Source: Syntrophomonadaceae bacterium (GTDB lineage: Bacteria > Bacteroidota > Ignavibacteria > Ignavibacteriales > SURF-24). Taken from it: DNA of 64,000 nt. The first letter of the stretch is position 1. Each line of letters starts with the position of its first letter. Position numbers and translations under genes: made by a program. This document shows, piece after piece, positions 47,117 to 61,891 of this stretch. The stretch lies in the NCBI GenBank assembly GCA_050259615.1, contig JBLNAZ010000170.1, positions 46,902 to 110,901 on the forward strand, in the 5' to 3' direction. Under the pieces are notes generated by a model that saw nothing but the letters and a program-made list of their open reading frames with translations, made no database searches and was not told where the DNA came from.

Positions 47117-50100
47117 CTATAATGAAAAGGCCCTATCAATCAGTTCATCCTGCTCTTTTTGATGCATTTTTAAGGAACCTGAAGCCGGGCTGGCGCTTTC
47201 ATTTCTTCCTGCATAGAAAAGGTTCCTGTTTTGTGAAGTTAAATCCCCGGACTTCTGGAGAATAAAGCTCCAGGCTCCCATATTTTTAGGCTCCTCCTGC
47301 GTCCAAACGATTGTGCGGGCATTTGTGTAAGAATTAATAACTGTCTTAATTTCTTTAATTGGGAACGGGTAGAGTTCTTCCAGGCGTATGACGGCCGAAT
47401 CGCTGATATTATTTTTATTTTTATAGGCGAGCAGCTCAAAATAAAGTTTTCCGCTTACCAGAAGGAGTCTTTTAACAATATTTTTATCCTGTACTGAAAC
47501 GTCATCCAGAACTTTGGAGAATTTACCTGAAGTCATTTCACTGAGAACGGAGCGTGCCTCCGGCAGCCTGAGCAGGCTTTTAGGTGTAAAAATAACCAGA
47601 GGCCGGTGCAGATTATACTTTATCTGGCGGCGCAGCAGGTGAAAATTCTGTGCCGGTGTAGTCACATTGCATATAGTCATATTATCTTCTGCCGCAAGTG
47701 AAAGAAATCTTTCTATTCTTGCGCTCGAATGTTCAGGTCCCTGGCCTTCATATCCGTGAGGCAGAAGAAGTACCAGGCGATTTGGCAGTTTCCACTTACT
47801 ATAGGCACTGACCAGGAAGTTATCAATTATTACCTGTGCGCTATTGGCAAAGTCGCCAAACTGTGCCTCCCAGAGTACCAGTGATAAAGGGTCGGCTACG
47901 CTGTAGCCCAGTTCAAAGCCCAGCACTGCAGCTTCGGAAAGCAGGCTGTCAAGTGCTTCCATGGATGCCTGGTTTTGTGCCATGTGGTTTAAGAGCAGGA
48001 TCTCCTCTCCGGTATTTATGTCGGATAAGATCAGGTGTCTCTGGCTGAAGGTTCCTCTGGCGCTGTCCTGGCCGCTTAAGCGGATGGGGGTTCCTTCCAG
48101 AAGAAGTGTCCCAAAAGCCAGGGCTTCAGCATATGCCCAGTCGATAGGCATTTGCGGGTTTTTAATAAGTTCTTTTCTTTTTGTGAGCATTCTGGCCAGT
48201 TTAGGATTTGCAACAAATCCTTCGGGCAGGGTAGTTATGCCCTCCACTACTTTAATAATCTCTTCAGAAGCTGCTGCGGTGGGTTCAATTTCTTTCTGAA
48301 CATTTAACTTGTCCTCAGGAACCGCAAGTGGCAGATCTGAATAAAAATCGAAAGTATCGTTTGCTGATTTATCAAAAGACTCGTTCAGGCACTCATTTAC
48401 ATTTGTTCTTTTATCTATTTCTTCATCTGAAGAAATGAATTTTTCTGCAATAAGCTTCTGTTTATAGAGTTCTTTTACAGAAGGGTGTTCCTTAATATTC
48501 CTGTACATTACAGGCTGTGTATAGGCCGGATCGTCTCCTTCGTTATGGCCATGGCGCCTGTAGCCAAAAAGATCAATTACAACGTCCTTATTGAATTTCT
48601 GCCGGTATTCATACGCCAGACGTGTAACCCATAAGGCAGCTTCAGGATCGTCGCCGTTAACGTGAAATATTGGTGCCTGCACCATTTTAGCCACGTCTGT
48701 TGCATAAATAGATGAGCGGGCCTCAGCCGGATCGGTAGTAAAGCCTATCTGGTTATTTATTATGAGGTGGATTGTGCCGCCTGTGCGGTAGCCTTTTAGC
48801 TGTGACAGGTTAATCGTTTCGGCAACAACTCCCTGACCGGCAAATGCGGCATCGCCATGGATTAAGAGGGGAATGATAACTTTGCGTTCTGTATCGCCGG
48901 CTCTTTTCTGTTTTGCCCTTACAATTCCCTCTACAACCGGGTTAACCCATTCAAGGTGACTCGGGTTAGAGGCTACCGAGACTGTTAGTGTTTTCCCGTT
49001 AATTGCTTTTACTTCTCCTGAAGCCCCGAGGTGATACTTGACGTCGCCTGAACCCTGGACTGAATTAGGGTCGATATTACCCTCAAATTCAGTAAATATT
49101 TTCTCATAGGATTTACCGATTATATTAGCCAGTACGTTCAGGCGCCCGCGGTGTGCCATGCCCATAAAAATTTCCCGTACGCCGTCTTCGGCCGATAGGT
49201 TTATCAGGTAGTCAAGCAGCGGTATTACAGTTTCTGAGCCTTCGAGGGAGAACCTTTTATGCCCCACAAACCTTGTATGGAGGAAATGCTCAAACTCCTC
49301 GGCAATTACGAGCTGCCAGAGAATTCGTTTTTTCTCTTCGGCACTGAATGTAAAATGGTTTCTGATAGGTTCCATTTTACTTTGCAGCCATGCTTTTTCT
49401 TCGGGATGCTGAATGTGCATGGACTCTATGCCGATCTTGTCGCAGTATGTCTGCTGCAGGATGTCTAAAATTTCCCTAAGTGTCCCGGTTTCCTTTCCGC
49501 CAAGGCCGCCTGTTATGAACTTCCTGTCATAATCCCATATTGTAAAGCCATGGTTGGCAGGATCAAGTTCAGGGTGGTAGATTGAATTGACCCCGAGAGG
49601 GTTAAGGTTTGCAATGAGGTGGCCTCTTACTCTGTATATATTTATCAGCTGCAGTATTCCGGCCTGCTTTTCAATATTATCCATTCCGGGAATTGCCGCA
49701 TAAGTCTTACCCTGAGTATCCTCCCTGTAGTTAACAGGTTTCTGCGGGATATTGAAATCCTTAAAAATATCCTCATAAAAATTTTCCTCACCCAGCAGCA
49801 GGTCATTTATAAGTTTTAAGAACAGCCCCGATTCGGCGCCCTGGATTACGCGGTGGTCGTAGGTGCTTGTAATATTCATAACCTTGCCTATACCGAGTTC
49901 GGCTATTGTAGAGCGGCTCATAGCCTGATATTGTGCGGGATAATCTATAACGCCTATAGCTATAATACCGCCCTGTCCGGTCATAAGTCTGGGAATAGAG
50001 GATACGGTGCCCACGGTGCCGGGGTTTGTAAGGGAGATAGTGGTTCCCTGAAAGTCGGATGGTTCAATTCTGCCCGTCCGGGAGCGTTTAATTACGTCGT

Positions 50101-50788
50101 CGTAAGCTTTCCTGAAATCTGAAAAATTCATCTTATCGGCCCCTTTAACGTTGGGGACAATTAATGAGCGTGTACCGTCTTTTTTCTCAATATCTATAGC
50201 CAGGCCGAAGTTAACCTCTTTTTTCTGCACCAGGTAAGGTTTTGCGTTAACCATGGCAAAGGAATTATTCATTGAAGGGAACAGCCTGAGTGCCCTGACA
50301 ATTGCATAGGCTACAATATGTGTAAACGAAATTTTCCCCTGATTGGTTTTTTGAAGAAACTGGTTAATTATTCTGCGGTTTTCTTCCAGGAGTTTAACAG
50401 ATATCGTCCTCTGGCTTGTAGCAGTCGGCATGGTAAGGCTGCCCGTCATATTCTCAATAATTCTTGCCCCGACGCCCGTAATAAGTTGATAGTTTTCGTG
50501 TTCTCCTGAAGGGGGGGGAGATGTCTGACGGGAAGGCTCCTTTAGTGCAGGCTGCTGTTTAGGCTGTTTTAATTCCGTTTGCACCGGCTCCTGGATTGCT
50601 GTCCGAGGCTTTTTTTGCGCCGGAGATTTTTCTGCAGTTTTCAGATTATTAAAGTAGTTCTGCCAGAATTCCGAAACGGAATTTTTATCATTCAAATAGC
50701 TGTCGTATAAATCTGCTACATACCAGAAATTTGAGCCAAACTGCTCAAAGAGAATTTCATGTCCATCGGATAAATGCTGTTCATCCAT
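47117..50788 (-). CDS. kgd: Multifunctional 2-oxoglutarate dehydrogenase/decarboxylase (Kgd/OdhA-type E2-E1 fusion)
   Basis: Acyltransferase domain (TISLTNPGTVGT, STYDHRVIQGAESG) fused to E1o (KRFSLEG, GMAHRGRLN, HGDAAFAGQG, RRHGHNE, WEAQFGDF, LPHGYEGQGPEHSS). Confidence 0.93.
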   Translation of the reverse strand: MDEQHLSDGHEILFEQFGSNFWYVADLYDSYLNDKNSVSEFWQNYFNNLKTAEKSPAQKKPRTAIQEPVQTELKQPKQQPALKEPSRQTSPPPSGEHENYQLITGVGARIIENMTGSLTMPTATSQRTISVKLLEENRRIINQFLQKTNQGKISFTHIVAYAIVRALRLFPSMNNSFAMVNAKPYLVQKKEVNFGLAIDIEKKDGTRSLIVPNVKGADKMNFSDFRKAYDDVIKRSRTGRIEPSDFQGTTISLTNPGTVGTVSSIPRLMTGQGGIIAIGVIDYPAQYQAMSRSTIAELGIGKVMNITSTYDHRVIQGAESGLFLKLINDLLLGEENFYEDIFKDFNIPQKPVNYREDTQGKTYAAIPGMDNIEKQAGILQLINIYRVRGHLIANLNPLGVNSIYHPELDPANHGFTIWDYDRKFITGGLGGKETGTLREILDILQQTYCDKIGIESMHIQHPEEKAWLQSKMEPIRNHFTFSAEEKKRILWQLVIAEEFEHFLHTRFVGHKRFSLEGSETVIPLLDYLINLSAEDGVREIFMGMAHRGRLNVLANIIGKSYEKIFTEFEGNIDPNSVQGSGDVKYHLGASGEVKAINGKTLTVSVASNPSHLEWVNPVVEGIVRAKQKRAGDTERKVIIPLLIHGDAAFAGQGVVAETINLSQLKGYRTGGTIHLIINNQIGFTTDPAEARSSIYATDVAKMVQAPIFHVNGDDPEAALWVTRLAYEYRQKFNKDVVIDLFGYRRHGHNEGDDPAYTQPVMYRNIKEHPSVKELYKQKLIAEKFISSDEEIDKRTNVNECLNESFDKSANDTFDFYSDLPLAVPEDKLNVQKEIEPTAAASEEIIKVVEGITTLPEGFVANPKLARMLTKRKELIKNPQMPIDWAYAEALAFGTLLLEGTPIRLSGQDSARGTFSQRHLILSDINTGEEILLLNHMAQNQASMEALDSLLSEAAVLGFELGYSVADPLSLVLWEAQFGDFANSAQVIIDNFLVSAYSKWKLPNRLVLLLPHGYEGQGPEHSSARIERFLSLAAEDNMTICNVTTPAQNFHLLRRQIKYNLHRPLVIFTPKSLLRLPEARSVLSEMTSGKFSKVLDDVSVQDKNIVKRLLLVSGKLYFELLAYKNKNNISDSAVIRLEELYPFPIKEIKTVINSYTNARTIVWTQEEPKNMGAWSFILQKSGDLTSQNRNLFYAGRNESASPASGSLKMHQKEQDELIDRAFSL

Positions 50789-51158
50789 TATGCTATACCC
50801 TCAATTATTACTTTCGTATTATGTCCCCATTATTTCAGTTTAAGAAAATATAGGTTCAAACTCAATCTAGCATAAAAGCCCCTTATTCAGGAATTTAAGG
50901 GTATGCAGATTTATTTGCACTATTGTTCCCTTTAAAAAGTTAGATTTTCCTTGCAAATGGTGCATAATTTTACAAAATTGCAAAATAGAATTAAATTAAT
51001 AACGATAAGTGAAAGTAAAGATATGCTCTTTACAGATGTAAATACATTTTATTTCCAGAAATTAAATCCCCTCTTGCTTCGGCATTGCCCTGATTTGTAA
51101 GTCTTCAGTTCTACTTGCCCTTTTTTTAATATAGTTTTAATGACTAGGAGGAAATTAT

Positions 51159-52991
51159 ATGTGCGGTATAGTCGGATATATTGGCGCTAAGAATTGTATT
51201 CCTATATTACTCGGCGGGTTAAAAAGGTTAGAATACCGTGGTTATGATTCTGCTGGTGTCGGGGTTCTTTCCCAAGGTAAAGCCCTTGTTGTTAAAAGTG
51301 TAGGAAAAGTCACCGTTCTACAGGATAAATTAGAAAATCTCAGTATTAGTTCAACTATCGGTATCGGTCATACCAGGTGGGCAACTCATGGCGTTCCAAA
51401 CGAAACAAATGCCCATCCGCATGTGAACAACGAAAATTCCCTGATGTTAATTCATAATGGAATTATTGAGAACTACGCGGCTTTGAAAGAAACACTAAAA
51501 CTAAGCGGTTATATTTTTAAGAGTGATACAGATACAGAAGTTTTGGCTCACCTGATAGATAGTTTTATAAACAAAGGTTTGACTCTCTTCAACGCAGTGA
51601 GAGCTGCATTGAACGAAGTTGAAGGAACCTACGGCATTGCAGTGGTATCTGAAAATGAACCGGATAAGATTGTAGTAGCCAAAAAGGGTTCTCCGCTTGT
51701 TATAGGTATAGGCAATGATGAAAACTTCATAGCTTCGGATGTAAGCGCGCTTGTAGCGCATACCCAGCAGGTAGTATATCTTGAGGATGGGGAAGTAGTT
51801 GAAGTATATAAAGATAAATTCATCGCCAAGGATGTTTCGGACAAAGAAATTGAAAAGAAAGTGCAGGAAATTACCCTTAAGCTCGATGAAATCAGCAAGG
51901 GCGGTTTTGCCCACTTTATGCTCAAGGAAATTATGGAGCAGCCGGAATCCATCTGCAATTCCATGCGCGGAAGGCTTGTTCTCTCTGAAGGCACTTCGAA
52001 GCTTGGGGGTATTGAGGATTTTGCGGACCGTCTGGCACAGTCCAGAAGGATCATTATTTCCGCATGCGGCACCTCCTGGCATGCAGGTCTGGTAGGTGAG
52101 TACATGTTTGAGCAGTTTGCAGAGATACCCACAGAAGTGGAATACGCCTCGGAGTTCAGATACAGGAACCCCTTAATCTATCCTGATGATACGGTAATAT
52201 TTATTTCTCAAAGCGGCGAGACGGCTGATACACTTGCCGCGTTAAAAGAATCCAAAAGGCGGGGCGCATTATGCATAGGCGTATGTAACGTTGTAGGCAG
52301 TTCAATTGCAAGGGAAAGTCACGCAGGGGTTTACATACACGCAGGTCCCGAGATCGGAGTGGCTTCGACGAAGGCTTTCACATCGCAGCTGATTGTGCTT
52401 TCACTCATTACGCTTTTAATTGCCAGGAAGAAGCGTATGAGCCTGGTGGACGGGCAGAATATAGTCTCTGAAATTGAGCAGATCCCTGAGAAAATTGAGC
52501 GGATACTCAAGCTTTCTGACGAGATTGAAAAAATTGCCGAAGAGTTTAAGGATTCGCAGAATTTCCTCTATTTAGGACGAGGCTATAATTTCCCCGTTGC
52601 TTTGGAAGGCGCCCTGAAGCTGAAGGAAATCTCCTATATTCATGCCGAAGGATATCCTGCGGCTGAAATGAAACATGGTCCCATTGCATTAGTTGACAAG
52701 AATATGCCTGTTGTTTTTATAGCTCCTAAGGATTCGACATACGACAAAATCCTCAGCAACATTCAGGAGGTAAAAGCAAGGCAAGGAAGAATTATTGCAA
52801 TCGCATCGGAAAGTGACGACAAGATAAACGATCTTGTGGATTATGCGATTAAAATCCCGGACACAATAAGGATGTTAATGCCGATACTTACTGTAATACC
52901 TTTACAGATGTTGGCTTATCATATAGCAGTTAAGAAGGGGCTGAATGTTGACCAGCCCAGAAATTTAGCTAAAAGTGTTACAGTTGAATAA
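51159..52991 (+). CDS. glmS: Glutamine-fructose-6-phosphate aminotransferase
   Basis: MCGIVG, LEYRGYDSAG, GHTRWATHG, SQSGETADT, PRNLAKSVTVE. Confidence 0.99.
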   Translation: MCGIVGYIGAKNCIPILLGGLKRLEYRGYDSAGVGVLSQGKALVVKSVGKVTVLQDKLENLSISSTIGIGHTRWATHGVPNETNAHPHVNNENSLMLIHNGIIENYAALKETLKLSGYIFKSDTDTEVLAHLIDSFINKGLTLFNAVRAALNEVEGTYGIAVVSENEPDKIVVAKKGSPLVIGIGNDENFIASDVSALVAHTQQVVYLEDGEVVEVYKDKFIAKDVSDKEIEKKVQEITLKLDEISKGGFAHFMLKEIMEQPESICNSMRGRLVLSEGTSKLGGIEDFADRLAQSRRIIISACGTSWHAGLVGEYMFEQFAEIPTEVEYASEFRYRNPLIYPDDTVIFISQSGETADTLAALKESKRRGALCIGVCNVVGSSIARESHAGVYIHAGPEIGVASTKAFTSQLIVLSLITLLIARKKRMSLVDGQNIVSEIEQIPEKIERILKLSDEIEKIAEEFKDSQNFLYLGRGYNFPVALEGALKLKEISYIHAEGYPAAEMKHGPIALVDKNMPVVFIAPKDSTYDKILSNIQEVKARQGRIIAIASESDDKINDLVDYAIKIPDTIRMLMPILTVIPLQMLAYHIAVKKGLNVDQPRNLAKSVTVE

Positions 52992-53015
52992 CTATTAATA
53001 GGGAGGTTTATTTTT

Positions 53016-54335
53016 ATGGCTCGTAAAAACGTTCTCATCATGGGTGCCGCAGGGCGCGATTTCCATAACTTTAATGTTTATTTCAGGAACAATAAGGAGT
53101 ACAATGTAGTTGCCTTTACAGCAACACAGATCCCTAACATTGACGGCAGAGTTTACCCAAAGGAACTGGCCGGGGAACTGTATCCTGAAGGAATTAAAAT
53201 TTACGATGAATCAGAGCTGGAATGCCTGATTGATGAGCTTGAAGTTGAGGAAGTGGTTTTCTCTTATTCAGATGTTCCTTTCAATTATGTAATGACGAAG
53301 GCCTCAATAGTTAATGCCGCAGGTGCCTCTTTCAGACTCCTGGGGGCAGAAGAAACCCAGATTAAAAGCTCCAAGCCGTTAATTTCTGTTCTGGCTGTAA
53401 GAACCGGAAGCGGAAAGAGCCAGACTTCGAGAAAGGTAGTTGAAGTTTTAAGAAATGCCGGTAAAAAAGTAGTTGCCATACGCCACCCGATGCCTTACGG
53501 CGATCTTGTAAAGCAGAAGGTTCAGAGATTCGGCTCTTTAGAAGACCTGAAGCTTCATGAATGTACAATTGAGGAAATTGAAGAATATGAACCACATATT
53601 GCTTTAGGCGGCGTTATTTACGCAGGCGTAGATTACGGTGCAATTCTTGCCGAAGCTGAAAAAGAAGCTGACGTCATACTCTGGGACGGCGGCAATAACG
53701 ACATATCATTCTATAAGTCTGATGTTACTTTCACTGTTGTTGATCCGCACCGTCCGGGTCACGAAATGACTTACTATCCGGGGAACACTTCTCTCAGGAT
53801 GGCTGACTGCGCAATCATAAATAAAATTGATTCAGCTGATCCGGTAAACATTCTGACAGTAAGAAACAATATCCGCAAGGTAAACCCGGGTGCAAAGATT
53901 ATTGACGGAGCCTCACCGATATTTGTTGACAATCCTGAGCTAATAGCAGGAAAAAGGGTGCTCGTTGTTGAAGACGGTCCTACTTTGACACACGGTGAAA
54001 TGGAATACGGCGCAGGAACAATTGCCGCCATGAATTTCGGAGCAAAAGAAATCGTAGATCCCAGGCCTTATACCGTAAAATCTATTACTGCAACCTATCA
54101 AAAGTATCCGAAAATTGGTATTTTACTGCCTGCGATGGGATACGGTGATGACCAGGTAAAAGATCTTGAAGATACTATTAACAATACGGATTGCGATTCA
54201 GTGGTTATCGGTACCCCTATTGATTTAGGCAGGATACTTAAGATAAACAAACCATCAACCCGTGTACGTTATGAGCTCCAGGAAATCGGAGCAATTACAG
54301 TTGAAAGCATTCTAAAAGAAAAAGGGATTATATGA
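53016..54335 (+). CDS. P-loop protein of the cyclic 2,3-diphosphoglycerate synthetase-like family; probable arginine synthetase (ArcE)
   Basis: GAAGRDFHNFN, RTGSGKSQTS P-loop, RHPMPYG, EEYE, WDGGNND, EDGPTLTHG; coupled to carbamate kinase and OTCase genes. Confidence 0.8.
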   Translation: MARKNVLIMGAAGRDFHNFNVYFRNNKEYNVVAFTATQIPNIDGRVYPKELAGELYPEGIKIYDESELECLIDELEVEEVVFSYSDVPFNYVMTKASIVNAAGASFRLLGAEETQIKSSKPLISVLAVRTGSGKSQTSRKVVEVLRNAGKKVVAIRHPMPYGDLVKQKVQRFGSLEDLKLHECTIEEIEEYEPHIALGGVIYAGVDYGAILAEAEKEADVILWDGGNNDISFYKSDVTFTVVDPHRPGHEMTYYPGNTSLRMADCAIINKIDSADPVNILTVRNNIRKVNPGAKIIDGASPIFVDNPELIAGKRVLVVEDGPTLTHGEMEYGAGTIAAMNFGAKEIVDPRPYTVKSITATYQKYPKIGILLPAMGYGDDQVKDLEDTINNTDCDSVVIGTPIDLGRILKINKPSTRVRYELQEIGAITVESILKEKGII

Positions 54336-55276
54336 GGAAACTGGCTGTTGTTGCCTTTGGAGGCAACGCGCTCCTGAGGGCTGGCCAGGTTGGAACAGCA
54401 GACGAACAGGAGCAGAATTCATATGATACCTGTAAGAATCTCATAGAACTCATTAAAGATGGCTACGACATTGTAATTACGCATGGCAATGGTCCCCAGG
54501 TGGGCAATATTTATTTAAGGAGTGATGCGGGCTATTCCTTATACAAGATTCCAAAGATGCCGCTGGATATCTCTGTAGCAGATTCCCAGGGGGAAATTGG
54601 CTACATGATTGAGCGCCAGATGAGGAATCTTCTTATAGAAAACAATATCGACAGGAAAGTCCTGACGGTATTAACCCAGGTATTAGTTGATAAAGACGAC
54701 AGCGCTTTTGCGGTGCCTACCAAACCGGTAGGCCCTTATTATCTTAAGGAAGAGGCTGATCTGCTTGCAAAGACTAATAACTGGCTTTTTAAGGAAGATC
54801 CGAGGAAAAGGGGCTGGAGGCGTGTTGTTGCCTCCCCCAAGCCGCTCAATATAATGAATTCTGAGCTGATTGGGGAACTTGCCAGAGAAGGACATATTGT
54901 AATTGCCGCAGGAGGCGGAGGCATACCCGTCTTTCTGGACGAGAACAACACTTACCGTCCCGTTGAAGATGCTGTAATCGATAAGGATCTGGCTTCAGCT
55001 CTGCTGGGATACCAGATAAAAGCTGATGCATTCTTTATACTTACAGACGTTGCAAAAGTCTGCCTTAATTTCAATAAGCCGGACCAGGTTCAGCTCGATG
55101 AATTAAAGCTTGAGGATGCAAAAAGGTACTTTGAGGCCGGAGAGTTTCCAGCTGGCAGCATGGGCCCGAAAATTATGGCTGCAATTAAATTTGTTGAATG
55201 CAGCGGAAAGGAAACAATTATTACTGAGGCCACCAGACTTACTGACCTGAACAGCGGGACTAAAATAATTCTTTAA
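54332..55276 (+). CDS. arcC: Carbamate kinase
   Basis: AFGGNAL, THGNGPQVG, PTKPVGP, WRRVVASP, GGGGIPV, AVIDKD, GSMGPK. Confidence 0.96.
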   Translation: MRKLAVVAFGGNALLRAGQVGTADEQEQNSYDTCKNLIELIKDGYDIVITHGNGPQVGNIYLRSDAGYSLYKIPKMPLDISVADSQGEIGYMIERQMRNLLIENNIDRKVLTVLTQVLVDKDDSAFAVPTKPVGPYYLKEEADLLAKTNNWLFKEDPRKRGWRRVVASPKPLNIMNSELIGELAREGHIVIAAGGGGIPVFLDENNTYRPVEDAVIDKDLASALLGYQIKADAFFILTDVAKVCLNFNKPDQVQLDELKLEDAKRYFEAGEFPAGSMGPKIMAAIKFVECSGKETIITEATRLTDLNSGTKIIL

Positions 55277-55328
55277 GAGTGGCTCAATAAAAACAGATAA
55301 AATTGAAAAAGCAGTAAATGGAGAAAAA

Positions 55329-56261
55329 ATGGCAGTTAATATGAAAGGAAAAAGCCTAATTTCCATAAATGACCTTACAATTGAGGAAGTTTGGCAAATT
55401 TTTGAACTCAGTGCAACTCTCAAAATGAAACGCCTTACCGGGGAACCCCATAGATTACTTGAAGGCAAAACCCTCGGAATGATATTTTCAAAGCCTTCAA
55501 CAAGAACAAGAATTTCTTTTGAAGTCGGTATTTATGAGCTTGGCGGGATCGGGATGTATTTCGGCCAGAACGACCTTCAGTTAAAAAAGAGTGAAAGCGT
55601 TGCCGATACAGCCAGGGTTCTCTCACGCTACTTAAGCGGTATTATGATCAGGACATTTGATCACCAGGATGTAATTGATCTGGCAACTTACGGATCGATT
55701 CCGGTAATAAACGGACTGACAGATTTATTGCACCCCTGCCAGGTTTTGACAGACCTTTTTACAATCTATGAGAAAAAGAGGGTGTTAAAAGGACTGAAAC
55801 TTGCATACATTGGCGACGGAAACAATATGGCGCACAGCCTGCTGTACGGATGTTCAAAAGTCGGGATGAATATTGCAATTGCTTCACCTTCAGGTTATAA
55901 GCCTGTTGAACAGATCGTTAAAAATGCCGAAGCAAATGCTAAGTATATGGGCAGCAAAGTTGAAATTCTGGATGATCCTGTTGCTGCAGTGAAGGATGCC
56001 GATATCGTTTATACCGACGTATGGGCCAGCATGGGTCAGGAAAAAGAAGCCGAAGAGCGTAAAAAGATATTCCATAAGTTCCAGGTTAATCCGGGACTTG
56101 TAAAGAATGCAAAAGAAGATTACCTGTTTATGCACTGCCTGCCTGCACATAGGGGAGATGAAGTGGTAAACGAAGTTTGTGATTCCCCGAATTCCATAAT
56201 ATTTGATGAGGCTGAAAACAGACTTCACGTTCAAAAAGCAATTATGGCCCTTGTGATGTAA
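55329..56261 (+). CDS. argF: Ornithine carbamoyltransferase
   Basis: STRTR, HPCQ, GDGNN, DVWASMG, HCLPA, AENR. Confidence 0.97.
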   Translation: MAVNMKGKSLISINDLTIEEVWQIFELSATLKMKRLTGEPHRLLEGKTLGMIFSKPSTRTRISFEVGIYELGGIGMYFGQNDLQLKKSESVADTARVLSRYLSGIMIRTFDHQDVIDLATYGSIPVINGLTDLLHPCQVLTDLFTIYEKKRVLKGLKLAYIGDGNNMAHSLLYGCSKVGMNIAIASPSGYKPVEQIVKNAEANAKYMGSKVEILDDPVAAVKDADIVYTDVWASMGQEKEAEERKKIFHKFQVNPGLVKNAKEDYLFMHCLPAHRGDEVVNEVCDSPNSIIFDEAENRLHVQKAIMALVM

Positions 56262-56288
56262 AATCCTGCGGGTCCTTTGTTTAGATGG

Positions 56289-56318
56289 ATGCCGGGTAAA
56301 TACCCGGCATTTTATTTT
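56289..56318 (+). terminator. Intrinsic terminator after argF
   Basis: ATGCCGGGTA-AA-TACCCGGCAT followed by TTTATTTT. Confidence 0.8.
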
Positions 56319-56427
56319 AAAAAGAATAATTTCCATACTGATAAATTGAATACGGGCAGGTATGTACTTTTATCTGTAATTGCTTATTTTGGTAGAAGCA
56401 ATTAATTACTTTTACGGAGGAGCAGTA

Positions 56428-57279
56428 ATGAAGTATTTTTACCGGATATTATTTCTTGCAGCATTAATATTATCTGTAAGCCTGCAGTCATCTTCATATG
56501 CAAAAGAGCCGAAGGGAAAAAAGCCGTGGCTTATTTTGGCAAAGGAAGATCTGGCCAGGGGGACTTACCACACAGATCATTACAGGATTTTTAAGAAGTA
56601 TACGTCGGGCTATAACCTGGAAGTCCTGAAAGCAATCGACATGGTACAGGCCCACGCAATGGACGGAGGAGGCTACTTTATAGGCAAGGACTCCGTCCCG
56701 ACTGAATCCCCGACATATTACGAGCTTAAACTGTTTGATAAATCTCTCATAACTCCTCCGCGCCACAGCAGTTACTGCTCGGGAAGTTCGTATTCCGCTT
56801 TTATAGAAGCCTTAAATATTATACTGGCAAAGAAGGGGAAAAACTTAACTCCGGAGAGGCTGGAAGCGCTAAGAATGCAGGAACCCAACGGCGGCAGACG
56901 GGAAGACTGGATAAAATTCTGGGGTATCTGGAATGCCGATGGTTTTGGAAGTCAGTTTGCCATGGTACAGTATTCCCAGATGGGCGTCGAGGTTAAGCCT
57001 GAGGATGCACGCCCGGGTGATTTTCTGAACATATCCTGGAAAACAGGTATAGGGCATTCTGTAGTTTTTCTCGGCTGGTACATGGATGAGAAAAACAATA
57101 AAAATATGGTTTACTGGAGCAGCCAGAAAAGTACAAACGGCTTCGGCGACCAGGTGGTTTCTTTGGATAGAATAAAAGACGTAAAGATTGTAAGGCTTAC
57201 AAAGCCCGGAAACCTGTTTAAGTTTGACATAAACCAGAAAATAAATAAAGATGTACCGGGAGATCAGATCAACTGGTAG
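56428..57279 (+). CDS. Exported hypothetical protein, possible NlpC/P60 papain-like fold (probable start ATG 56428)
   Basis: GGAGG SD, signal peptide, SYCSG and RPGDFL-GHSVVFLGW. Confidence 0.65.
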   Translation: MKYFYRILFLAALILSVSLQSSSYAKEPKGKKPWLILAKEDLARGTYHTDHYRIFKKYTSGYNLEVLKAIDMVQAHAMDGGGYFIGKDSVPTESPTYYELKLFDKSLITPPRHSSYCSGSSYSAFIEALNIILAKKGKNLTPERLEALRMQEPNGGRREDWIKFWGIWNADGFGSQFAMVQYSQMGVEVKPEDARPGDFLNISWKTGIGHSVVFLGWYMDEKNNKNMVYWSSQKSTNGFGDQVVSLDRIKDVKIVRLTKPGNLFKFDINQKINKDVPGDQINW

Positions 57280-57287
57280 AAGGAAAT

Positions 57288-57315
57288 ACAAAAGCGGCAC
57301 CAGTTGCCGCTTTTG
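57288..57315. terminator. Bidirectional intrinsic terminator
   Basis: ACAAAAGCGGCA-CCAGT-TGCCGCTTTTGT. Confidence 0.8.
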
Positions 57316-58770
57316 TTATGCTTCAGGTAAAACAATGGAAAATACAGTTTCCCCGCTGGGTTCAGAGTGAACATGAATTTCACCATTATGCCATGTTACG
57401 ATGGATTTTACCACTGAAAGCCCCAGACCGGCTCCACCCAGGCTCCTGTTTCTTGAGGATTCAGCCCTGAAGAACCTGTCGAATATTTTAGGGAGCAGCT
57501 CTTCAGGAATTCCCGGGCCATGGTTCTTTACAGAAATATTAATTTTGTTTGCTTCCATCCGGCTGACTTCAATAATTACAGGGGTGTTTTCATCACCAAA
57601 CTTTATTGCGTTGTCAACCAGGTTAAAAAGCGCCTGGCGCATCCATTCCTGGTCAAGAAAAACGTTTGCATCGTTTTGCACATTAAACAGAAGTTCAAGC
57701 TGATTTTCTCCGGCCATAAAGCTCATGTCAGACAAAATGTCTTCGAGGTAAGCCTTCAGGTTCACTTTTTCCATGTTTATTTTAATCAGCGAGTGATCAA
57801 TTTTTGAAATAAAGAAAAGCTTATCAACGATATTTATAAGCCTGAGAGTTTCCTCATAATTGCTTTGAAGAATTTCCCTGTATTCCACGTGAGTTTTGGG
57901 AGATTTGAGAGCAACTTCAATTTCACCGCGTAAAATAGTAAGGGGGGTTTTAAGTTCGTGTGAAGCTGAAATTGAAAACTGATTCATATACTCAATGGAT
58001 GTTTTAATCCTGTGTATCATTTCATTCAGCCTTCTGACCAGGCGTCCGTATTCATCCCCAAATTCTTCGCCCTCAATTTTCTCATTCAGGTTTTGGGCAG
58101 TAATCTCATCGAGCCTTCTTATTACACGGTCAATTCTGGAGAGCGACCGGGCTGAAATGAGAAAGCCTCCTATAATGGAAATGATCAGGAAAATAGGGGC
58201 AATAATTACGTAAGTATCCTTCAGACTGTCCAATGCCTCGTGGATCAGGTCAGCGGGGAAGGCTACAATAATTTTGTATCTTCCTTTCTGAAGATATGCG
58301 CCTCTTATTGTATAAGGAGAAAGCTTTTCATTTCTGAAAGCCAGTATGTTTACCTTATTTGTCTTAACCTGAGGAAAGTCAAGCTTGTGCCCCATAAGGT
58401 TTTCTGTTCTGAAGATTATCTTATCCTTAAATTGTACCTGGACATATGTGTTGCGCGGGTTAAGTGTAACGGCTTCAAATATAAGGTCATAAACAAGATC
58501 TTCGGGTGAAGTGTAGACCGAGTCGGGCTGGAAGTCATTCAGGTCTATTTTGCTGTCCGAGACGAAATTATAAATTGCTTCAGTCTGTCTTGTAAGCGCA
58601 ACATCCAGCTGTTCATTAAGGCTGTGGTGAGTATAGATATAAATGGCAGCACCTATCAAGGCCTCAAGAAGCAGAAACAGCAATGAATACCACAAAGTAG
58701 TCTTAAAGCGTGTTGTCTTTACATACAAAGCTGCTTTGGAGAAAGTCTTTTGCAAGTTTAATATTTTCAC
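57316..58770 (-). CDS. HAMP sensor histidine kinase (CusS/ArlS-like)
   Basis: Two TM helices, HAMP, ASHELKTPLT, NLVDNAIKF, IFDRFFR, GAGLGLS. Confidence 0.93.
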   Translation of the reverse strand: MKILNLQKTFSKAALYVKTTRFKTTLWYSLLFLLLEALIGAAIYIYTHHSLNEQLDVALTRQTEAIYNFVSDSKIDLNDFQPDSVYTSPEDLVYDLIFEAVTLNPRNTYVQVQFKDKIIFRTENLMGHKLDFPQVKTNKVNILAFRNEKLSPYTIRGAYLQKGRYKIIVAFPADLIHEALDSLKDTYVIIAPIFLIISIIGGFLISARSLSRIDRVIRRLDEITAQNLNEKIEGEEFGDEYGRLVRRLNEMIHRIKTSIEYMNQFSISASHELKTPLTILRGEIEVALKSPKTHVEYREILQSNYEETLRLINIVDKLFFISKIDHSLIKINMEKVNLKAYLEDILSDMSFMAGENQLELLFNVQNDANVFLDQEWMRQALFNLVDNAIKFGDENTPVIIEVSRMEANKINISVKNHGPGIPEELLPKIFDRFFRAESSRNRSLGGAGLGLSVVKSIVTWHNGEIHVHSEPSGETVFSIVLPEA

Positions 58771-60058: not shown

Positions 60059-61891
60059 TTATACTCCCTTATAGTCCATATGGAAAGTAAAATGGGGGAA
60101 CTGCTTTGGCAGATGAATTATGTTGTAAATCATAACGCCGATCGACATTCTGTCGAGCCAGGAAGAAAGCGGCCAGCCGAAATGGATATGCAGTTTTTTG
60201 TCGGGCGGCATTTCATATTCCAGTGTTTTAAGAAGGGCAACAATCATATCAAATAATTTCATTCCTCTTTGGATAGATATCCAGAAGTGGTTTGGGCTGA
60301 AGTTCTGGGGCGCCTCGTTTCTGGGGGAATAGAAACTAATGAATAAGTTATCTAATTGTGTTTCCTGCAATTCATATTCAGATGGGCGTCTGAAGTAAAG
60401 GTGAACGTCATCCGAAGGTACATCACTGATAGCAAAAATAATATCCATTGGGGTTCTGGTAGCCCTTCTGACTGGGATTTCTGGAGCCCTGAATTTTGAT
60501 ATTCTAATGCCGGCAAGCAGGAACAGGAGTGTAATGCTGAACCAGAGCAGGGTGCCGTAGGGCCTGTTCAGTGCAATATAAATGAATGTACTGAGAAGAA
60601 TAATAAATAAAATTAAAGTGCCGATTCTGGAAGTGTGGTATGAAATTTCCTTTGTGCCTTTAGAATACCTGTAGATAATAAGCGAACCGGTGTTGATGCA
60701 AAAACTAGCAATGAGTCCCACGGCATACATTTCAGCCAGTATAGCCTGGCTGCCGCTTGTAACGATAAGAATTGCGGTATAAAATATTCCGTTAACAATA
60801 TGGATTCTGTAGAGCGACTGTTTTTTGTTCAGTTGAATAAGCCAGCCGTAATTATATCTTTCACCAACTTTTTCAATGAGTTCGGCTGAAGCTACCATGG
60901 CGGTATTGACAGCCATAATAAGTGTTATACTGGCGAGGATGGAAACAAGGACTCCGAAGAGTTCACCGTTAACGCTGGTGGCGAAGGCCGGTATAAGATC
61001 GGTTTCATGCTTGCTTATATCTACATTCGATGAAAGCGCAAGCAGTGCAATTATAGGAGTAACTATACCGACAGTAACAGCAAGAAAGAAGTAAGCCTTT
61101 CTAATTTCCTTCCAGCTTTTTACAAGTGAGGCAGTCTGAAGCACAGATTCAATACCGGAGTAGGCCAGAATACAGCTTCCGATGCCGATAATTATGTTCT
61201 GATAGGAATGGAAAATTGATCCTCCGCTCAGATCATGCCAGAAGTCGCCAAAGCTTGCATTAAGCTGCATTAGAGTATGCTGATTAAAGTTGGCAAAGCC
61301 GCCAACGATGAGGTTTACCAGAACAAAGGACGCAAATACAAAGATCAGGAAAGTAAACTTTGCATTTTCCTTTATTCCCACAATATTAAGTCCGGTGATG
61401 AGCCAGATTACAATGATTTTTAAGAAGAACTTTGCTCCCAGCCCGAGAGCCAAAAAAGAAGTGCCGTTTTCCACGGCGCTGACCGTTGAAATAGCGGCTG
61501 TAAGAACATAGCTTACTATAATTGATGAAATAGCAATAAAAGAGGTATTGGGTCCCAGAACCAGATAGGAAAACGAATAGACTCCGCCGCCTTTTATATT
61601 ATTTGCCTCAAGTATTTCGGAAATCTCCACCATTCGTGTGGAAAGAAAACGGATCAGAATAGATGTTAGGGCAATGTAGACTATCGCCTTAATTCCTATA
61701 AAACGGAAGGCTTCAAAAGGAGCATAGTAAACCGAAGTCAGTTCATCCATTAAGGTAATAATACCAACGGCTATCCATGTGAGCCACCATCTTCCGTTAA
61801 AAAGATATGAAAGAAAATCTTTCTTGCTCATTACTTTTATGAACAGGGCGACAAGCAGTATGTTAATTATAGCATATATAAAAGTAAGCAT
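60059..61891 (-). CDS. APC-superfamily permease with soluble C-terminal domain (KimA/YdaO-like)
   Basis: DELTSVYYAP, GGGVYS, YVLTAAIS, NIVGIKE, YSGIES, MYAVG; at least 12 TM helices. Confidence 0.82.
   Translation of the reverse strand: MLTFIYAIINILLVALFIKVMSKKDFLSYLFNGRWWLTWIAVGIITLMDELTSVYYAPFEAFRFIGIKAIVYIALTSILIRFLSTRMVEISEILEANNIKGGGVYSFSYLVLGPNTSFIAISSIIVSYVLTAAISTVSAVENGTSFLALGLGAKFFLKIIVIWLITGLNIVGIKENAKFTFLIFVFASFVLVNLIVGGFANFNQHTLMQLNASFGDFWHDLSGGSIFHSYQNIIIGIGSCILAYSGIESVLQTASLVKSWKEIRKAYFFLAVTVGIVTPIIALLALSSNVDISKHETDLIPAFATSVNGELFGVLVSILASITLIMAVNTAMVASAELIEKVGERYNYGWLIQLNKKQSLYRIHIVNGIFYTAILIVTSGSQAILAEMYAVGLIASFCINTGSLIIYRYSKGTKEISYHTSRIGTLILFIILLSTFIYIALNRPYGTLLWFSITLLFLLAGIRISKFRAPEIPVRRATRTPMDIIFAISDVPSDDVHLYFRRPSEYELQETQLDNLFISFYSPRNEAPQNFSPNHFWISIQRGMKLFDMIVALLKTLEYEMPPDKKLHIHFGWPLSSWLDRMSIGVMIYNIIHLPKQFPHFTFHMDYKGV

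Follow-up and report, generated by a model that had tools for sequence, protein, structure and literature searches.

A glmS-arcE-arcC-argF unit of an Ignavibacteriales bacterium probably encodes an arginine synthetase pathway in place of arginine deiminase

What does a bacterium do with arginine when carbamate kinase and ornithine carbamoyltransferase (OTC) are encoded side by side and the arginine deiminase gene arcA is nowhere to be found? This question is raised by a 64-kb stretch of DNA (the window) from an Ignavibacteriales bacterium (Bacteroidota), whose genome assembly comprises 4.44 Mb in 247 contigs and is 96.25% complete. A gene for a P-loop protein (P0001) is followed there by the carbamate kinase gene arcC and the OTC gene argF/arcB (Table 1). 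A first-pass annotation had described the P-loop gene as overlapping arcC by an ATGA and as followed by OTC; we found the open reading frames (ORFs) exactly so arranged, and the equivalog models were passed. It had read the three genes as an ArcE-type arginine synthetase pathway, in which ArcE works with OTC and carbamate kinase. Our analysis bears this reading out in the identity of P0001 to Thermococcales proteins (64–65%), its remoteness from cyclic 2,3-diphosphoglycerate synthetase (cDPGS) and the missing arcA. With glmS at its head, the unit probably provides an arginine synthetase pathway where other bacteria use arginine deiminase; its main role is most likely the breakdown of arginine.

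The pathway was described in Thermococcus kodakarensis, where it consists of ArcE (TK2200), ArcB and ArcC (Michimori, Yokooji, Atomi 2024, PMC11032458). That report states that the characterised ArcE uses ADP/ATP, that homologues of arcE are found across the genera Pyrococcus, Thermococcus and Palaeococcus, and that ArcE is widespread in bacteria, Bacteroidota being included via Petrimonas. A tetramer-type sigmoidal response to ADP has likewise been reported for TK2200. The enzyme, the pathway and its broad bacterial occurrence were therefore already published in 2024. What sets the present locus apart is the conservation of its glmS-arcE-arcC-argF unit, a single OTC for breakdown and biosynthesis alike, and the comparative evidence for catabolism. 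Our literature search, outside which lay the distribution supplements of PMC11032458 (Figs S10, S11, Table S1), found no paper on ArcE in Ignavibacteria.

P0001 aligns without gaps to a protein of Thermococcus sp. 21S9 (65% identity, 80% positives, 432 aa) and to one of Pyrococcus furiosus DSM 3638 (64% identity, 433 aa). In the archaeal class that holds a named Methanofastidiosia locus, a homologue was present in 59 of 61 genomes, the full-length matches listed being 48–67% identical. About 30 of these genomes (1.7–2.2 Mb, nearly all single contigs) have a homologue at 64–67% identity to P0001, and one protein of the class led to proteins of Thermococcus, Pyrococcus furiosus, P. horikoshii and Thermococcus litoralis that are 87–94% identical to it. 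A 90% cluster of 201 members spans many Thermococcus species and Palaeococcus (15 members listed, T. kodakarensis not among them). We file P0001 as a member of the ArcE family. The only organism in which the reaction of this family has been assayed is T. kodakarensis; we propose the same reaction for P0001 on the grounds of its 64–65% identity to proteins of the order in which the measurement was made.

The placement of P0001 was also examined in a tree of 112 family members, which is unrooted, has no cDPGS outgroup and shows placement inside the family only. P0001 falls inside a fully supported clade of 17 sequences from the same order. This clade is nested in a set of 22 rows (support 95), mostly from genomes of the same phylum together with one Spirochaetota bin, and 12 rows from the archaeal class above, Thermococcales-like by the names of related proteins, form a neighbouring clade. 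Pattern searching with the WDGGNND motif retrieved 595 relatives. P0001 also carries RTGSGKS, which we take to be a Walker A motif, and NKID, which we presume to be akin to the NKxD motif of SIMIBI and G-protein families; in Foldseek, its fold matches P-loop kinases and NTPases.

The databases name the family differently. Close homologues of P0001 (81–99% identity), from Ignavibacteriales, Melioribacteraceae and similar bins, are called "cyclic 2,3-diphosphoglycerate synthase" or "GTPase" by NCBI and "predicted GTPase" by JGI, as the first-pass annotation had foreseen in holding that standard annotation would miss the pathway. Were the first of these names correct, P0001 would be a true cDPGS, and the M. 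fervidus enzyme (8ORU, 8ORK; also 9SXB), from which the name derives, is indeed remotely homologous, shares the overall P-loop fold and gives the best structural and profile match. The best match of the single sequence in PDB is cDPGS 9sxb (22 bits, E 6e-4), which makes "cDPG-synthetase-like", the wording of the first-pass annotation, a fair description, and a profile of 15 family sequences scores 65.8 bits against cDPGS in PDB. On these scores the relation is real but remote. An AlphaFold2 model of P0001 (mean pLDDT 93.8, pTM 0.91) found M. fervidus cDPGS 8oru as its best Foldseek match, at a TM score of 0.46, 15% identity and E 6.9e-17. The gene context is also different from that of cDPGS, the P0001 gene being translationally coupled to carbamate kinase, and the genome had no match at E ≤ 0.001 to NF003259 (PRK04220.1), which we take to be 2-phosphoglycerate kinase.

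Moreover, NCBI and UniRef give the same "cyclic 2,3-diphosphoglycerate synthase" and "GTPase" names to the family members of Thermococcus, Pyrococcus and Palaeococcus (P0295–P0316, P0412–P0425), so the cDPGS name carries no weight. A cDPGS function is close to refuted, and we give it next to no credence. The misnaming extends to the very order in which arginine synthetase was characterised. It is a systematic annotation error: metabolic reconstructions based on such genomes will overlook arginine catabolism and may introduce a spurious thermoprotectant pathway.

Other family searches placed P0001 only broadly. It matches the cobW/HypB/UreG P-loop family of Pfam weakly (E 9e-5) and had no match in NCBIfam. 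The second-best Foldseek group was LpxK, the tetraacyldisaccharide 4'-kinase of Aquifex aeolicus (4ehy; TMt 0.59–0.61), which shares the P-loop kinase core; the identity is 11–12%, the match is limited to the core and the substrate is another one. TK2200 and P0001 have the same fold neighbours, LpxK 4EHY and other P-loop NTPases, and 4EHY was superimposed on TK2200 to infer nucleotide binding (PMC11032458).

P0001 might also act on another guanidino or ureido compound, or have some other P-loop function, and merely neighbour arcC and the OTC gene. No residue-level determinants of specificity are known, and no ArcE structure was among the matches in the PDB copy searched, which leaves room for such an activity. 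We nevertheless consider it improbable. As a matter of general knowledge, a gap-free identity of 64–65% is far above what is usual where the substrate has changed. The adjacent gene encodes a true OTC, which stays below the cut-off of the putrescine carbamoyltransferase model (332 of 500 bits) and contains STRTR, HPCQ, SMG and FMHCLP, which we take to be OTC motifs. Across the class, moreover, arcE tends to occur in the same genomes as arcC and close to it.

This association was counted in 201 genomes drawn evenly from the phylum, the arcE/arcC cross-tabulation being made by hand from coordinates. We found arcE in 42 genomes and arcC in 35; 32 had both, three had arcC alone and ten had arcE alone. 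Of the 32 genomes with both, 29 carry arcE and arcC on a single contig, no more than 7 kb apart. No genome of the sample reached the arcA cut-off. The ArcE family occurs with carbamate kinase in arcA-free genomes (32 of the 35 with arcC), and arcE is apparently the regular partner of carbamate kinase in this bacterial group. Weaker genes of the arginine deiminase (ADI) superfamily were seen in 66 of the 201 genomes (115–356 bits, against an arcA cut-off of 489), and five genomes of the same order have such a gene together with arcE.

Among 16 loci of the same order (L022–L037), arcC adjoins arcE in 14 and glmS directly precedes arcE in 13. At least nine carry an OTC-like gene after arcC, the loci ending about 0.5 kb beyond arcC. 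In three relatives (L026, L034, L037), the carbamoyltransferase after arcC is 37–41% identical to the window OTC, against 75–90% elsewhere, and may be of a different, perhaps dedicated catabolic, type. We also examined 80 diverse homologue loci, the best 80 of a genome scan, from named genomes, with up to 5 kb of flank fetched; arcC lay within the flank in 13 and an OTC-like gene in six, with no Thermococcales among the 80. The association of arcE and arcC recurs in several phyla and is far from universal.

The rest of the genome fits a replaced deiminase. The first-pass annotation had noted the absence of arcA from the window and had proposed looking through the genome for arcA, argG, argH and 2-phosphoglycerate kinase. 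The absence of arcA extends to the whole genome (no TIGR01078 match at E ≤ 0.001 in an assembly of the completeness given above); as with arcA, the presumed 2-phosphoglycerate kinase model was unmatched, and argG and argH are both present. arcE is a single-copy gene and arcC encodes the only carbamate kinase. Three carbamoyltransferases are encoded: the operon OTC, PyrB (encoded next to pyrC and pyrR) and a ygeW-like enzyme. The last scores below the OTC cut-offs, leaving the operon OTC as the only true one. An argC-argJ-argB-argD-argR-argG-argH cluster without argF lies on another contig (C163, locus L016 9145–16466), and carA and carB are present. The conventional arginine route is complete, provided that the operon OTC serves it. 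With one OTC in the genome and no argF in the arg cluster, that OTC must also supply citrulline to ArgG and ArgH.

Two observations concern genes just mentioned. Upstream of argC (L016 16467–16899), ARG-box-like sequences that differ from the E. coli consensus by 2–3 mismatches follow one another in overlapping series. On contig C82 (locus L017 8190–13902) there is a cluster of a ygeY-like hydrolase, the ygeW-like carbamoyltransferase, a pyridoxal phosphate enzyme and a MocA-like cytidylyltransferase; because the genome has only one carbamate kinase, that of the arcE operon may also serve this cluster.

The proposed pathway shares its three enzyme families, and the lack of arginine deiminase, with that of T. 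kodakarensis, and differs from it as follows. The host is a bacterium and apparently mesophilic, as judged by soil and rice-paddy sequencing runs that hold parts of its genome, in small shares only. The three genes stand in one operon headed by glmS. The single OTC is also used in biosynthesis. Finally, the genome has CarAB and ArgGH, both of which T. kodakarensis lacks (PMC11032458). With these present, the bacterium does not depend on the pathway to obtain carbamoyl phosphate, unlike Thermococcales, for which a role of the pathway in carbamoyl-phosphate supply is reported (Michimori et al. 2026, PMC13260591). If the assignment is right, an enzyme known experimentally only from a hyperthermophilic archaeon extends to widespread soil and sediment bacteria.

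In breakdown, ArcE would convert arginine, ADP and inorganic phosphate to citrulline, NH3 and ATP; OTC would cleave citrulline by phosphorolysis to ornithine and carbamoyl phosphate, from which carbamate kinase would yield a second ATP. During arginine synthesis, the same OTC would supply citrulline to ArgG and ArgH. The last two steps, the operon layout and the net conversion of arginine to ornithine, CO2 and two NH3 are those of the arginine deiminase pathway (arcA-arcB-arcC); carbamate kinase and OTC adjoin here in one operon-like unit, as judged by ORF positions, family models and the terminator. The ArcE step differs in being non-hydrolytic, its energy being kept as ATP, which gives two ATP per arginine instead of one (PMC11032458). 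Arginine fermentation in these bacteria should then be credited with two ATP, not one.

For the direction of the pathway we surveyed 19 genomes: the window's own, 17 from its order and one from its class. argG, argH and argJ were all present in 11 and occurred as fragments at contig ends in one. The remaining seven (G029, G097, G101, G169, G173, G177 and G089) have none of the three; they are 99–100% complete and are probably arginine auxotrophs. Six of these seven keep arcE and arcC. One of the six is a single contig, and its arcE-arcC-argF locus (L027) has an OTC that is 83% identical to that of the window over the part fetched. The seventh genome has arcC and an ADI-like gene without arcE. 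That the module is retained by genomes which can produce neither ornithine nor argininosuccinate is accounted for best by a catabolic role, and we infer that the pathway most likely runs mainly toward arginine breakdown. The 2024 report agrees, viewing ArcE as catabolic in organisms that have both ArcE and ArgGH (PMC11032458).

The first-pass annotation had offered, as its other possibility, a reversed three-enzyme route from ornithine to arginine that bypasses CarAB and ArgGH. As a necessity this is not supported: argG, argH, carA and carB leave no gap to fill, and the six arg-less relatives keep the module. A weaker form has the three enzymes working mainly or conditionally in synthesis, from NH3, CO2 and ATP through carbamoyl phosphate and citrulline to arginine. 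ArcE would then aminate citrulline with free NH3 and one ATP, a cheaper, ammonia-dependent route beside CarAB and ArgGH for times when ammonium is plentiful. The reaction is reversible, T. kodakarensis can make arginine from citrulline by ArcE, and it has been suggested that ArcE may serve biosynthesis in bacteria without ArgGH (PMC11032458). The placing of the only OTC in this operon, away from an arg cluster that has none, also suits synthesis, as does a start with glmS, a nitrogen-assimilation gene. We nonetheless judge a mainly or conditionally synthetic role unlikely, as the six relatives would have no ornithine of their own as substrate and the Ks for ammonia is reported to lie in the millimolar range.

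A two-way arginine valve set by nitrogen status would combine both directions. At high ammonium, arginine would be made by ArcE, carbamate kinase and OTC at a cost of about two ATP, and CarAB and ArgGH would be spared; with arginine at hand, these three enzymes would run in reverse and gain two ATP. If true, the valve would be analogous to the way cells choose between glutamate dehydrogenase and glutamine synthetase–glutamate synthase (GS-GOGAT), and a single cell with ArcE and ArgGH as alternative routes of synthesis would be without precedent. For this lineage we hold it to be a quite doubtful proposition.

Several points weigh against breakdown by an arginine synthetase pathway as we propose it. 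The equilibrium of ArcE is only about 10 toward citrulline and ATP at 80 °C (PMC11032458), so metabolite levels set the direction, and sequence cannot reveal it. The tie to the assayed TK2200 is indirect, running through other Thermococcales proteins and the statement on Thermococcales in that report, and our literature search found no assay of a bacterial ArcE homologue. The relatives compared are not independent samples. As arcC lies within the flank of only 13 of the 80 diverse loci, the family is not always tied to the pathway, a count that also speaks for another substrate. The window OTC scores best on an OTC subfamily model and on none that is specific to breakdown. The arginine/ornithine antiporter model, finally, had nothing over its cut-off in the genome and was likewise below cut-off in all 14 control genomes, and is no evidence either way.

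The link to glmS bears on how the pathway genes are expressed. The gap between glmS and arcE is 24 bases and contains only a ribosome-binding site, and in most relatives of the same order the spacer is 11–25 bases, with little beyond such a site. At the arcE/arcC junction, the sequence around 54332 reads ...GGG ATT ATA TGA, overlapping ATG AGG AAA, and beyond argF lies a strong terminator-like hairpin. Likely, glmS is the first gene of the transcription unit, and we infer that glmS, arcE, arcC and argF are co-transcribed. Amino-sugar synthesis for the cell wall and arginine catabolism thereby appear to depend on a common transcript. In one relative (locus L036), the spacer between glmS and arcE is longer and contains a GC-rich hairpin, CCGGGGCGATCCCCCGG, which may be an internal terminator or attenuator.

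Contigs from four rice-paddy RNA libraries are mostly 90–95% identical to the window and therefore come from relatives. One of 2073 bases takes in the end of arcE, all of arcC and part of argF, and others span glmS/arcE and arcC/argF. These contigs, a further caution for our reading, prove neither transcription nor a single transcript and are at best a weak hint; parts of the window without such cover carry no weight.

Searches for control elements gave little. A scan for sigma-70 promoters found 10 sites, against a mean of 14.9 in shuffled sequence, and is uninformative for Bacteroidota. An Rfam scan of 50500–57600 found no glmS ribozyme and one match only, at chance level. Two ARG-box-like sequences with four mismatches each lie upstream of glmS (50902–50976), one of them having an 11-mer in common with the region upstream of argC; these matches are no better than AT-rich DNA would yield. 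An ARG-box-like match at the glmS/arcE junction was rejected, the conserved GTTGAATAA being the coding end of glmS.

Table 1. Features of the glmS-arcE-arcC-argF unit, in window positions.
Feature	Position	Strand	Basis
glmS, glutamine--fructose-6-phosphate transaminase	51159..52991	+	TIGR01135, 833.5 bits (cut-off 418)
Ribosome-binding site AGGGAGG of arcE	53000..53006	+	Read from sequence; ends 9 bases before the ATG at 53016
arcE-type arginine synthetase gene (putative), 439 aa (P0001)	53016..54335	+	64–65% identity to Thermococcales proteins
GAAGRDFH, conserved N-terminal motif	53043..53066	+	G10, G13 and R14 invariant, H17 nearly so (alignment of 38 homologues)
RTGSGKS P-loop, residues 129–135	53400..53420	+	G133 invariant; R129, T130, G131 and K134 nearly so (38 homologues)
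WDGGNND motif, residues 223–229, Walker-B-like region	53682..53702	+	Invariant in the 15-sequence alignment
NKID, residues 269–272, NKxD-like	53820..53831	+	K270 nearly invariant (38 homologues)
ATGA shared by arcE stop and arcC start	54332..54335	+	Read from sequence
arcC, carbamate kinase, 314 aa	54332..55276	+	TIGR00746, 367.7 bits (cut-off 358.25)
argF/arcB, OTC, 310 aa	55329..56261	+	TIGR00658, 429 bits (cut-off 280.85)
Intrinsic-terminator-like hairpin and T run, closing the unit	56287..56322	+	11-pair stem with 6 G-C pairs, then TATTTTAAAA; hairpin 56287–56312

Three further genes of the window flank the unit. Upstream, on the reverse strand (47117–50788), a gene encodes a 1223-aa fusion of 2-oxoglutarate decarboxylase/dehydrogenase E1 with an E2-type acyltransferase domain (NF008907, 1695 bits), an architecture known from Actinobacteria. 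Past the terminator, a probable secreted protein gene with no family match lies on the forward strand (56430–57279), and about 4 kb downstream the reverse strand (60059–61891) encodes an APC-type amino acid permease of 610 aa.

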